DNA of 30,907 nt from Escherichia coli (GTDB lineage Bacteria; Pseudomonadota; Gammaproteobacteria; Enterobacterales; Enterobacteriaceae). The stretch's first letter is position 1. Each line of letters opens with the position of its first letter. The stretch lies in NCBI RefSeq assembly GCF_003334385.1, contig NZ_QOWN01000055.1, one strand, 5' to 3'. Of this stretch, positions 149-30,304 are shown one piece after another. The translations under genes were made by a program, and so were the position numbers. A model generated the notes under the pieces. It was not told the origin of the DNA. It made no database searches and saw only the letters and a program-made list of their open reading frames with translations.

Positions 149-1717
149 TCATGGGGCTAAAATCCCCGAATAAGAGTTTGTAAAATCCAAGATACAGTCT
201 GACTGTTTCAGGTTCTTTAATCCGCGATATAACGAAGCTCCCGGAGCTGCGTAAGGTCTTTTTGGGCTCAATATTTGACAAAGGCCATAAGAATTCTTTT
301 TCCCGAGACAGACGGCACGAAGCGCTCTTTCTGCTGTGTTATTGTCCGCCTCCGCCAGACCGTCATCACTGTAATAACAGAGGCCGTCCCACTGATTCAG
401 GACATAGCTGAACGCTTCGCCCAGTCTGGATTTTTTCGACAACGTGCCATTCTTCTCCACCATCCATTCATGCAGCGACGTCAGTAACGCTTTGCTTCGC
501 TGCTGCCTGGCTGCAAGACGTTCAGACTCCGGTAAGCCCCGTATTTCATCCTCGATGGCGTACAGTTCACTGATTCGCTTCAGAGCTTCTTCTGCCGTCG
601 TACTTTTGCTGCTGATGTATACATCGTGTATTTTTCGCCGGGCATGGACCCAGCACGCAACTTCTGTCTGTGCACCACCTTCACGTTTGGCACTGAACAG
701 CCGATCGTAACCGCTGAATGCATCCGCCTGCAGGATACCCCGGAAGGGACGAAGGTGTTGTACCGGATGTTTTCCCTGCCTGTCTGGTGAGTAGGCGAAC
801 CAGACCGCCGGTGGCTCTGATGAGCCCGCATTCCGGTCATCCCGGACATACGTCCAGATGCGTCCTGTTTTTGCCTTTTTTCTGCCCGGTGTCAGCACTT
901 TTACCGGTGTGTCGTCAGTGTGAACCTTGCGGGTGTTCATTACATAACGGTACAGGGCATCATTCAGCGGAGTCATTAACTGGCAGCACGCGTCAACCCA
1001 GTTGGAGATTAATGCACGGCTCAGTTCGGCACCCTGTCGGGCAAAGATTTCACTCTGACGATACAGTGGCAGGTGTTCGCAGTATTTTCCCGTTAACACG
1101 CGGGCAAGTAATCCGGAGCCCGCGATGCCGCGCGCTATCGGGCGGGACGGCGCTGGCGCTTCAACTATATAGTCACATTTTGTACAGGCTTTTTTTACCC
1201 GAACAGTGCGGATCACTTTCAGGGCGCTACTCACCAGTTCCAGCTGCTCAGCACTGACTTCACCCAGATAATCCAGCTCACTGCCACACTCCGGGCAACA
1301 ACTTTCTTCAGGCTCCAGGCGGTGTATTTCACGGGGAAGATGTGCTGGTAACGGACGACGATGACGTGACTGTCGCAACTGGCGGGGAACCTGCGGGTCA
1401 TCCTCACTCCCACTGTAACGATCGCTTTCCTGTTCGCGTTGTTTCAGTTGGGCCTCAGCCTGTTCAACCTCACGCTGCAGTTTTTCAGAACGGGTACCGA
1501 ACAGCATCCGGCGCAGTTTTTCTATCTGGGCCCTCAGATATTCTATTTCCCGCTCCTCCTCTTCGATCTTTTCTTCGGCACGTGCCAGTGCAGAGCGCAG
1601 GAAGGCCTCCGTCTCTTCAACCAGACTCAGTTGCAGATCTCTCTGACGGAGGGCTTCAGCCTGCTCAGAGAGCAGCCTTTCCAGCTCAGTGATACGAATG
1701 AGGTATTTCCGACTCAT
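149..1717 (-). CDS. tnpC: IS66-family transposase TnpC, 3'-truncated: the last ~80 codons are replaced by read-through into unrelated flanking sequence
   Basis: 522 aa ORF, about 90% identical over most of its length to the intact 537 aa copy at 27691-29304. Has the Cys-rich CPECG...CTKC motif and the conserved IS66 core. Similarity to the intact copy stops after GKKN (nucleotide homology breaks near position 287), so the C-terminus is foreign read-through. Confidence 0.85.
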   Translation of the reverse strand: MSRKYLIRITELERLLSEQAEALRQRDLQLSLVEETEAFLRSALARAEEKIEEEEREIEYLRAQIEKLRRMLFGTRSEKLQREVEQAEAQLKQREQESDRYSGSEDDPQVPRQLRQSRHRRPLPAHLPREIHRLEPEESCCPECGSELDYLGEVSAEQLELVSSALKVIRTVRVKKACTKCDYIVEAPAPSRPIARGIAGSGLLARVLTGKYCEHLPLYRQSEIFARQGAELSRALISNWVDACCQLMTPLNDALYRYVMNTRKVHTDDTPVKVLTPGRKKAKTGRIWTYVRDDRNAGSSEPPAVWFAYSPDRQGKHPVQHLRPFRGILQADAFSGYDRLFSAKREGGAQTEVACWVHARRKIHDVYISSKSTTAEEALKRISELYAIEDEIRGLPESERLAARQQRSKALLTSLHEWMVEKNGTLSKKSRLGEAFSYVLNQWDGLCYYSDDGLAEADNNTAERALRAVCLGKKNSYGLCQILSPKRPYAAPGASLYRGLKNLKQSDCILDFTNSYSGILAP

Positions 1718-1747
1718 GACCGTTTTTATAATCCGGCCATGACATTT

Positions 1748-2098
1748 TTACAACATTGTCAGTGCGTTAAGACGGGATGTTTTTGGCTGACGCCAGTCCA
1801 GCTTATCGAGGAGCATTGCCAGCTGCGAGCGGGTAATGGATACCTTACCGTCACGCACCGCAGGCCAGATAAACTGGCCTTCCTCCAGGCGTTTGGTGAA
1901 CAGGCACAGACCATCAGCATCAGCCCAGAGGATTTTAATCATGTCACTCCGTCGGCCACGGAAGATGAACAGGTGACCGGAGAAGGGGGGCTCATCCAGC
2001 ACATGTTGTACCTGTTCACCCAGACCGTTGAAGGATTTACGCATATCAGTAACGCCGGCAACCAGCCAGATTCGAGTGTCTGATGGGAGCGAGATCAT
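1748..2098 (-). CDS. tnpB: IS66-family accessory protein TnpB (Orf2)
   Basis: 116 aa, near-identical to the ORF at 29335-29685; typical size and position between tnpA and tnpC. Confidence 0.9.
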   Translation of the reverse strand: MISLPSDTRIWLVAGVTDMRKSFNGLGEQVQHVLDEPPFSGHLFIFRGRRSDMIKILWADADGLCLFTKRLEEGQFIWPAVRDGKVSITRSQLAMLLDKLDWRQPKTSRLNALTML

Positions 2099-2520
2099 CG
2101 CCCCCTCCCGGTCAGTTCACGGATCAACACCGTGAGCAGCTCTGGTGAAGGATTTTCCAGCGTCATGTTACCGTGGCGGAACTCAACTTTACAGGAACTG
2201 GCACTGACTGTGCTTTGTGAAGGAGTGGATAAAAGCGGAGTAAGAGCCGCCATAGGCTCTTTCTGCTCATCAGGCGTTATCTCAACAGGTAATAATTCAA
2301 CGCCAGCGCCAGAAGAGGTTGTTACCGGAAGACGCCGCGATATACGCCCTTCGTTCTGCCAGAGCCTGAGCCATTTGAACAGGAGGTTATCATTGATATC
2401 GTGTTCCCTGGCAATACGGGCAACAGAGGCTCCTAGTTGTGAAGCCAGTTTAACCATTTGAAGTTTAAACTCATTTGAAAATGTTCTGCGGGGTTCTGCG
2501 GATAATATTTTCTGTTCCAT
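2095..2520 (-). CDS. tnpA: IS66-family accessory protein TnpA (Orf1)
   Basis: 141 aa; conserved NEFKLQMV...FKWLRLWQNEGR block shared with the ORF at 29682-30107; overlaps tnpB by 4 nt. Confidence 0.85.
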   Translation of the reverse strand: MEQKILSAEPRRTFSNEFKLQMVKLASQLGASVARIAREHDINDNLLFKWLRLWQNEGRISRRLPVTTSSGAGVELLPVEITPDEQKEPMAALTPLLSTPSQSTVSASSCKVEFRHGNMTLENPSPELLTVLIRELTGRGR

Positions 2521-2580
2521 AACAGGTGTCCACTAGTTGATGAAAAGGTGGGCACCTACGTTACCAATACTGGCTTAATG

Positions 2581-29304: not shown

Positions 29305-29334
29305 GACCGTTTTTATAATGCGGTCAGGAGTTTT

Positions 29335-29685
29335 TTACAACATTGTCAGTGAGTTAAGGCGGGATGTTTTTGGCTGACGCCAGTCCAGCTTATCGAGGAG
29401 CATTACCAGTTGCGAACGGGTAATGGATACCTTGCCGTCACGTACCGCAGGCCAGATAAACTGGCCTTCTTCCAGGCGTTTGGTGAACAGGCACAGACCA
29501 TCAGCATCAGCCCAAAGAATTTTAACGGTGTCACCCCGTCGGCCACGGAAGATAAACAGGTGGCCGGAGAAGGGATTATCATTCAGCACATGTTGTACCT
29601 GTTCTCCCAGTCCGTTGAAGGATTTACGCATATCGGTAACGCCGGCAACGAGCCAGATACGGGTACCTGATGGGAGTGAAATCAT
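29335..29685 (-). CDS. tnpB: IS66-family accessory protein TnpB (Orf2)
   Basis: 116 aa; paralogue of the ORF at 1748-2098. Confidence 0.92.
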   Translation of the reverse strand: MISLPSGTRIWLVAGVTDMRKSFNGLGEQVQHVLNDNPFSGHLFIFRGRRGDTVKILWADADGLCLFTKRLEEGQFIWPAVRDGKVSITRSQLVMLLDKLDWRQPKTSRLNSLTML

Positions 29686-30107
29686 CTTCCCCTCCCGCTC
29701 AGTTCGCGGATCAGCACCGTGAGCAGCTCTGGCGATGGATTTTCCAGCGTTATGTTACCGTGACGGAACTCCACCTTGCAGGAACTGGCACTGACTCTGG
29801 TCTGAGTGGAAGTGGATAAAGACGGCGCAATGGCCGCCACAGGTTTTTTCTGCTCATCCGGCGTTATTTCTACAGGTAATAATTCAACGCCAGTGTCAGA
29901 AGAGGTCGTTACCGGAAGACGCCGCGAAACACGCCCTTCGTTCTGCCAGAGCCTGAGCCATTTGAAAATAACATTATCATTGACGCCATTTTCACGTGCA
30001 ATCTGTGCAACACAAGCTCCAGGTTGTGATGCCAGTTCCACCATACGAAGTTTGAATTCATTCGAATAGTTTTTACGAGGTTCTTTTCGCCAGTCCTGTA
30101 ATTCCAT
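29682..30107 (-). CDS. tnpA: IS66-family accessory protein TnpA (Orf1)
   Basis: 141 aa; 4-nt overlap with tnpB; conserved FKWLRLWQNEGR block. Confidence 0.9.
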   Translation of the reverse strand: MELQDWRKEPRKNYSNEFKLRMVELASQPGACVAQIARENGVNDNVIFKWLRLWQNEGRVSRRLPVTTSSDTGVELLPVEITPDEQKKPVAAIAPSLSTSTQTRVSASSCKVEFRHGNITLENPSPELLTVLIRELSGRGR

Positions 30108-30304
30108 ACTTAGATGTCCGTCTATATCAGATGGGCGTCTAAGTTACCAATTTTCGTCTGATGGCTACATACGGCGGTCAGTTTACGCTTACCCATTTTG
30201 TCACAATTAAGTTTGATAAAGCAGGTCACCTCTGCACTGAATCTGCTCCAGTGCCTCATTGGTCTCCGTCCTCCCCTTTAAACTGCCGGATAAGACTGCT
30301 GCAC

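Follow-up and report, generated by a model that had tools for sequence, protein, structure and literature searches.

The stretch of Escherichia coli DNA considered here, in the following called the window (30,907 nucleotides, contig NZ_QOWN01000055.1 of RefSeq assembly GCF_003334385.1), contains two insertion sequences (IS) of the IS66 family, both on the minus strand, which stand in direct orientation around the nan genes, the aerobactin genes shiF-iucABCD-iutA and iha (Table 1). This arrangement had already been recognized in an earlier reading made from the letters of the window (the sequence-only reading), and alignment together with annotation confirmed it. The left element, copy 1, and the right element, copy 2, are the subject of this analysis, together with the question of what they have to do with each other and with the 25 kb of cargo between them. 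For comparison, 5,426 complete E. coli genomes were surveyed and, for plasmids, the PLSDB database.

Table 1. Features of the window, with positions counted from its first nucleotide
Feature	Position	Strand	Content	Basis
Right end of ISEc45 (IS110 family, 1,445 bp in full)	1..291	+	1-40, last transposase codons; 41-291, non-coding end	NZ_CP049845.1 annotation
Chimeric open reading frame	149..1717	-	475 codons of copy 1 tnpC plus 47 codons of read-through into the ISEc45 end; not a natural C-terminus	Diverges from EC2 TnpC after ...LGKKN
Copy 1, IS682-like IS66-family element, proximal 2,318 of 2,536 bp	292..2609	-	tnpC 293-1717 without its last 62 codons, tnpB 1748-2098, tnpA 2095-2520; tnpA-side repeat ends ...CGCTTAC at 2609	
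Degenerate transposase pseudogene between copy 1 and nan module	2666..3064	-	Frameshifted, internal stop; stops in all three frames	RefSeq: transposase domain-containing protein
nan module	3182..12082	+	N-acetylneuraminate lyase, N-acetylmannosamine (ManNAc) kinase, transporter of the major facilitator superfamily (MFS), hydrolases, KdgM-type porin, epimerase, nanR (minus), sialate O-acetylesterase	Annotation of matching genomes
Aerobactin module	12240..21518	+	shiF-like MFS gene (12240-13433, minus), iucA, iucB, iucC, iucD, iutA	Annotation
iha segment	21799..27599	+	Esr41 small RNA, TTTCGTAG tandem repeat, iha 24996-27086	Also in O157:H7 genomes
Remnant of another IS66-family element	27272..27500	-	Terminal GTAAGCG... 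end and last TnpC codons, translation ...LNGIEPETWLRHVISVINTWPANRMKELLPWNV	Also downstream of iha in Nissle and O157
Left 8-bp target-site duplication CCATTTTG from ISEc43	27653..27660			Single copy at the Nissle 1917 empty site
Copy 2, ISEc43 (IS66 family), 2,532 bp	27661..30192	-	tnpC 27691-29304, tnpB 29335-29685, tnpA 29682-30107, all intact; GTAAGCG...CGCTTAC	RefSeq name, NF033517
Right 8-bp target-site duplication CCATTTTG	30193..30200			Sequence
Third IS66-family remnant	30306..30786	-	Terminal repeat and C-terminal 135 TnpC codons	About 70% nucleotide identity to copy 2; NF033517, 123 bits, profile positions 288-386
Start of truncated ISL3-family transposase gene, runs off the window	30787..30907	+	Transposase, missing N-terminus	Annotation; matches to ISL3-family transposases

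The two IS66-family copies

Comparison of the window with itself yielded one long direct repeat, 292-2610 versus 27879-30193, with 85.95% identity over 2,321 columns and 5 small gaps (E = 0), each arm of which contains three minus-strand open reading frames (ORFs) of 141, 116 and about 537 codons. When the uninterrupted form of copy 1 from strain EC2 was used for the comparison of the proteins, TnpA of the two copies was found to be 76.6%, TnpB 92.2% and TnpC 87.3% identical. The sequence-only reading had estimated about 90% for TnpC and had called TnpA divergent, which is near the measured values, and its view that the copies are different isoforms of IS66 agrees with a DNA identity of 86%. 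Along the element the DNA identity is uneven, being 92-94% in the middle of tnpC and 64-83% near the ends. Both TnpC match the NCBIfam model of the IS66 transposase (NF033517) with 437 bits for copy 1 in its EC2 form and 443 bits for copy 2 (cut-off 180). The elements are nearly equal in length (2,536 and 2,532 bp), and their terminal repeats are alike over the first 32 nucleotides at the tnpA-side end and at 40 of 45 positions at the tnpC-side end. In 2001, in work on IS679, Han et al. are said to have described an 8-bp target duplication and the requirement for three ORFs as traits of the IS66 family.

Copy 2, whose transposase carries the RefSeq label "IS66-like element ISEc43 family transposase", shares about 93% identity with ISEc23 and ISEc47. 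It has the consecutive tnpA, tnpB and tnpC genes of an IS66 element (products of 141, 116 and 537 amino acids, TnpC being of the DDE type) and terminal inverted repeats that match at 22 of 30 positions and both start with GTAAGCGT. Its ends had been placed at 27661 and 30192 by the sequence-only reading, exactly where they were observed, and the search for a target duplication proposed there revealed a perfect 8-bp CCATTTTG on both sides. A query in which the two flanks of copy 2 were joined with one CCATTTTG aligned unbroken to the genome of Nissle 1917 (99.1% identity), which has a single CCATTTTG at this place. ISEc43 adjoins iha in only 39 of the 5,426 genomes, and at least 80% of the 25-kb interval is present in one place in 98. 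Because copy 2 has a duplication of its own, because its empty site is found in Nissle 1917 and because only 39 genomes have it beside iha, we regard it as a recent solo insertion: ISEc43 would have transposed alone into the site downstream of iha, making the 8-bp duplication. ISEc43 is also found at other loci and on plasmids with at least 99% identity, e.g. in S88 and pJE86, which fits an active element. A search of the literature on ISEc43 returned only papers in which it is named among the elements detected.

Copy 1 is uninterrupted in other strains, e.g. in EC2, where it comprises 2,536 bp (L002 5783-8318) and is 95.6% identical at the nucleotide level to an element annotated as IS682 and 86% identical to ISEc43; in EC2 it has tnpA, tnpB and tnpC between GTAAGCG repeats, and 23 of the 30 terminal positions match. 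In the window, homology to copy 2 and to the uninterrupted copy 1 begins at 292. The sequence-only reading had let the element start at 149 and had considered it truncated, without its distal end. Both statements have to be revised. Bases 1-291 are the right end of ISEc45, the ORF that reaches down to 149 is chimeric, and ISEc45 split tnpC of copy 1 at 291/292, after codon 475, the rest of the element lying beyond ISEc45. In the uropathogenic E. coli UPEC-245U this rest, 219 bp with the terminal repeat, is located directly left of ISEc45 (L001 18628-18846), outside the window. NF033517 covers residues 116-514 of TnpC. With its last 62 codons gone, TnpC of copy 1 lacks part of this conserved core, and the transposase is probably inactive in this lineage.

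No 8-bp target duplication was found around copy 1, the left flank being ATTTATCG (L002 5775-5782) and the right flank CATGTATC (window 2610-2617). A partial match in a shifted register (ATTTATC versus ATGTATC, 6 of 7 matching, the best in two registers) was treated as chance. By its genes and ends copy 1 is still assigned to the IS66 family; that the duplication was lost suggests that one flank was rearranged later.

The junction of copy 1 with nan is present in about 758 complete genomes and the insertion of ISEc45 in copy 1 in only five. Because these numbers go together with 98 genomes for the interval and 39 for ISEc43 beside iha, the copies appear to be of different ages: copy 1 would be an old resident beside nan, which lost its target duplication and whose tnpC was later split by ISEc45 in this lineage. 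Judged by these comparisons, the two copies belong to different IS species, were inserted independently and at different times, and do not form one unit.

The pheV island and the cargo modules

From 1 to 3200 the window is 100% identical to the chromosome of UPEC-245U/190328 (NZ_CP049845.1), and several other genomes are nearly identical there; UPEC-245U matches exactly through 3912, with small differences beyond. To the right of the window this chromosome has, in order, IS66-family and ISL3-family fragments, a sat/sigA-type autotransporter gene, a P4-type integrase gene, tRNA-Phe, yqgA and speC; the integrase gene and tRNA-Phe are outside the window, about 13-15 kb beyond its right edge. To the left there are another IS66 element, phage-like genes and Ag43. 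In a 2024 study (PMC11537424), the genomic island at pheV (GI-pheV) of the intP4.1 type was portrayed as a mosaic in which IS elements lie between the modules nan, shiF_iucABCD_iutA_sat, flu and yee; the set of nan genes found here is the "nan module" of that study. In NZ_CP049845.1 the island is integrated at tRNA-Phe (pheV) beside a P4-type tyrosine integrase, and comparison of the annotations with the study revealed nan, shiF-iucABCD-iutA, sat, iha and flu modules with IS elements between them. Gene content and neighbourhood place the window in this mosaic island at the pheV tRNA gene (GI-pheV, probably of the intP4.1 type) of extraintestinal pathogenic E. coli.

The cargo is more than 99% identical between strains, and its parts are also encountered separately. 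The shiF-iuc-iutA segment alone is found on many E. coli plasmids with 93-99% identity, and the iha segment (21799-27599) alone in O157:H7 with 98% identity. In Nissle 1917, nan is followed by an IS3-family element and iha, the aerobactin genes being absent between them, and in clone D i14, which is CFT073-like, the order is nan, IS3-family element, iuc-iutA and then sat. Because each of them occurs separately elsewhere (plasmids, O157, Nissle), the 25 kb between the copies are best described as three modules with separate histories, namely nan, shiF-iuc-iutA and iha.

The spacer between iutA and iha contains a match to the enterohaemorrhagic E. coli (EHEC) small RNA Esr41 (RF02676) at 22914-22987 on the minus strand (108.6 bits, gathering score 102); beyond Esr41 the Rfam scan of the window gave nothing. 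At 23041-23112 there is the octanucleotide tandem repeat TTTCGTAG, with 9 copies in the window and 16 in UPEC-245U. It starts 54 bp past the 5' end of Esr41, where the promoter of Esr41 would be expected, and small differences in interval length suggest that its copy number is variable in further strains too. The repeat may be a slipped-strand switch. At the boundary of the aerobactin module and the iha segment, a fragment of about 50 bp (21749-21799) recurs with 98-100% identity in numerous unrelated chromosomes and plasmids, where it is frequently overlapped by transposase genes or adjacent to them. Probably it is what remains of an IS end and marks the place where the two modules meet.

Besides the two copies there are the two IS66 remnants in the window and a full IS66 element just to the left (L002 3288-5694), all in the same orientation as both copies; homology to Nissle ends at 30304/30305, beside the third remnant. 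In this part of the island, elements of the IS66 type have accumulated time and again. In strains of sequence type (ST) 73 (Nissle 1917, clone D i14) a deletion of 1,489 bp joins the tnpC start of the neighbouring left IS66 element to the middle of tnpC of copy 1 (Nissle L004 6920-6935 versus EC2 L002 4839 and 6328). Homologous recombination between the two IS66 elements was rejected as its cause: the junction has only imperfect microhomology and is out of register.

Transposition and recombination of the block

The sequence-only reading had held that the block is not a simple composite transposon, and here it was right, as indicated by the CCATTTTG duplication that belongs to copy 2 itself, by the empty site in Nissle and by the mismatched outer flanks. 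A duplication around the whole unit does not exist, the 8 bp outside the two copies being ATTTATCG on one side and CCATTTTG on the other. In PLSDB there is no plasmid with at least 80% of the cargo; the plasmids have the iuc segment only, or iuc and iha. Of the 98 chromosomal copies (at least 80% of the interval) those inspected all sit in the pheV island. Because the outer 8 bp differ, one flank is younger than the cargo, plasmid copies are lacking and the cargo is separable, the block is, as far as these comparisons go, not a composite transposon.

One may think of a composite made of two unlike elements, in which TnpA, TnpB and TnpC of ISEc43 act on the outer end of copy 1 and on their own tnpA-side end and in this way move about 31 kb. 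It would be bounded by a tnpC-side repeat on one side and a tnpA-side repeat on the other, correctly oriented to each other; the two elements have nearly identical terminal repeats, and ISEc43 has all three ORFs intact. Such a composite is nevertheless scarcely credible, considering that the outer 8 bp do not match (ATTTATCG versus CCATTTTG), that ISEc43 has its own duplication and empty site, that the block was seen at no other locus and on no plasmid, and that it often occurs without ISEc43 (98 versus 39 genomes). A common origin of the copies from one IS that was duplicated along with the cargo or on both sides of it, followed by divergence in place, has next to no chance of being correct. 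Family, orientation and gene order are the same and the lengths, 2,536 and 2,532 bp, almost so, but the copies are 14% apart while the cargo is more than 99% identical among strains, and each is nearer to another named IS (IS682, 95.6%, for copy 1; ISEc23/ISEc47, 93%, for copy 2). Copy 2 is also absent from most genomes with copy 1 and the cargo. The known empty site and the closer relatives elsewhere refute a common origin at this place.

There remains recombination. A RecA-dependent crossover between the copies would delete or amplify the block, and the sequence-only reading had suggested that the homologous flanks could mediate its deletion, amplification or transfer. RecA-dependent exchange in E. 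coli needs a perfect match of roughly at least 25 bp and rises with length, and where sequences are more than 10% diverged, mismatch repair makes exchange several orders of magnitude rarer. In E. coli proficient in mismatch repair, the 14% divergence of the two copies is accordingly expected to lower recombination by orders of magnitude. The longest run of perfect identity between the copies is 52 bp, the only one of at least 50 bp; 10 runs have at least 34 bp and 19 have at least 25 bp. By these figures the pair is a poor but not impossible substrate for recombination.

A query for the deletion junction (5,551 bp: left flank, copy 1 and right flank of copy 2), expected to read ...GTGAACTGATATTTATCG, hybrid IS, CCATTTTGTCACAATTAAG, found 0 credible cases in the 5,426 complete genomes. 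Three matches with at least 80% coverage (81%) had 92.5-92.8% identity and consisted of 5 pieces spread over 7.5-8.4 kb; they came from unrelated ISCro1/ISEc8 clusters of IS66 elements in poultry strains and were rejected. With the query for the junction of a duplication or circle (4,932 bp: iha flank, ISEc43 and nan flank; expected ...CTTCTCAATCGCCATTTTG, hybrid IS, CATGTATCTGGCGAGTG) no record among these genomes reached 80% coverage. In eight genomes with both copies the spacing between them was compared. In seven it is within 57 bp of that in the window, and the difference of 57 bp, seen in UPEC-245U, was traced to the octamer repeat with its 9 versus 16 copies. In the eighth, S1-CAM-02-A (L011 15784-17614), it is 1,253 bp shorter; shiF and iucA are truncated and iucD is frameshifted, so that aerobactin synthesis has probably been lost there with the flanking IS elements untouched. 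The variants of the interval break elsewhere: in ST73 an IS3-family element separates nan from the module that follows, and the other case is the internal deletion in shiF-iucA.

The idea that the directly repeated copies provide portable homology, by which RecA deletes, amplifies or excises the nan-iuc-iha block and so shapes the variation of the island, has in its favour the direct orientation, 2.3 kb of alignable sequence and the perfect runs just mentioned; moreover, losses of whole modules from the GI-pheV of ST131 were ascribed to flanking IS elements in general (PMC11537424). Against it stand the 14% divergence, the failure of both predicted junctions to turn up in the 5,426 complete genomes, the conserved spacing in the genomes compared that have both copies, the variants that break elsewhere, and the short time for which the pair can have existed, i.e. 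since the recent insertion of ISEc43 (39 genomes). We consider it unlikely. The refuting condition set by the sequence-only reading does not formally apply. Recombination was to be given up if no perfect stretch of roughly 50 bp and no structural variants of the interval existed. Variants do exist, and so does the 52-bp run, which passes the threshold by 2 bp, but none of the variants maps to the IS66 pair. What that reading had foreseen is possible, yet it is unsupported by any junction in the genomes or by any plasmid with the block. A still bolder version, in which ISEc43 and the split copy 1 act as a composite of unlike elements, or give rise by a rare homeologous crossover to a circle with a hybrid IS, and transfer about 27-31 kb with the nan-aerobactin-iha block in one piece onto plasmids or into other islands, we hold to be very unlikely.

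Several observations weigh against our own interpretation, that of separate insertions. The terminal repeats of the two elements are so similar that cross-recognition by the ISEc43 transposase is possible, and from this similarity the remark of the sequence-only reading that the transposase of the intact copy could act on compatible ends is plausible. The substrate for recombination is not nil, as seen from the 52-bp run and the 19 runs of at least 25 bp. Both copies are held by only about 39 complete genomes, among which rare deletion derivatives could easily be unsampled, and finished assemblies do not show transient amplification or excised circles. Finally, the position of the distal end of copy 1 was read from another genome, one that is 100% identical over window 1-3200. 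With these points taken into account, we estimate at about 0.88 the probability that the window is a mosaic stretch of GI-pheV in which the IS66 copies are separate insertions of different species and different times, forming no joint unit, and in which the cargo consists of three modules.

The arrangement is an ordinary case of IS elements inserted into and beside each other in an island that is well described. According to this result the virulence block of GI-pheV is no transposon-like unit but a patchwork, and the IS elements at its flanks were acquired at different times, in agreement with the published picture of modules between IS elements. For annotation it is a lesson that a seemingly truncated IS at the edge of a window may have been split by another, site-specific IS, and that direct IS repeats should not be taken for a mobile unit before target duplications and empty sites have been checked. 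Movement of the block as one piece, if it occurred, would bear on how aerobactin, Iha and sialic-acid use spread together; nothing found here indicates such a movement.

ISEc45 and comparison with known systems

Sequence-specific insertion is known from the IS110 family, an example being IS4321/IS5075 in the repeats of Tn21. ISEc45 appears to favour one position in tnpC of IS66-family elements, as judged from three junctions and from coverage counts. A query of ISEc45 with IS66 flanks reached at least 80% coverage in 610 records from 575 genomes, where ISEc45 alone would give 78%. The copies examined (L001 18847-20291, L006 1687-3131 and L007 1503-2948) have the junctions GAAGAACATGTA^AATTCTTTTT in copy 1, GAAGAACATAAA^AGTTTTTATTT in another IS66 relative and CGCCAACATA^AATTCTTTTC at a look-alike site in an hsdS gene of a laboratory mutant. 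They have in common a motif near AACAT(N)A^AATTCTTTT, with AACATGTA/AATTCTTTT as the candidate target. ISEc43 differs at this site (GAGCACGTAATTTTTCTTT) and is uninterrupted. This suggests that ISEc45 is a sequence-guided IS that preferentially disrupts the transposase gene of another IS family. A literature search found nothing on the targeting of IS66 tnpC by ISEc45, which is only named among detected elements.

In its occurrence at one precise position of IS66-family tnpC in many genomes, and at the look-alike site in hsdS, ISEc45 resembles the sequence-specific insertions of the IS110 family such as those of IS621, which recombines by means of a bridge RNA (PMC11208160). For ISEc45, by contrast, the preference is read from three junctions and from coverage counts.

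With IS682 and ISEc43 of the IS66 family (IS679/IS66 group) the two copies share the order tnpA-tnpB-tnpC, a length of about 2.5 kb, ends that start with GTAAGCG and a TnpC that fits NF033517, and copy 2 shows the 8-bp target duplication of the family. Copy 1 differs from IS682 in being only 95.6% identical to the IS682 copy compared, in having no target duplication and in being split by ISEc45. Like composite transposons, e.g. Tn9 with IS1, the block has two direct IS elements around a cargo and at least one intact transposase. Unlike in Tn9, the flanks are different species (86%), there is no duplication of the whole unit, the unit is found at no second location and one flank came after the cargo.

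The closest counterpart of the window is GI-pheV or PAI-pheV, the pathogenicity island (PAI) of CFT073, EC958 and Nissle 1917 (PMC11537424). It is the same chromosomal island, with a P4-type integrase at tRNA-Phe and with Ag43/flu, nan, shiF-iucABCD-iutA, iha and sat modules parted by IS elements and IS remnants. Lineages differ in the order of the modules and in their IS elements. In the present arrangement iha has iutA on one side and an inverted sat-like gene on the other, nan and shiF are not separated by an IS3-family element, and ISEc43 and ISEc45 are lineage-specific additions.

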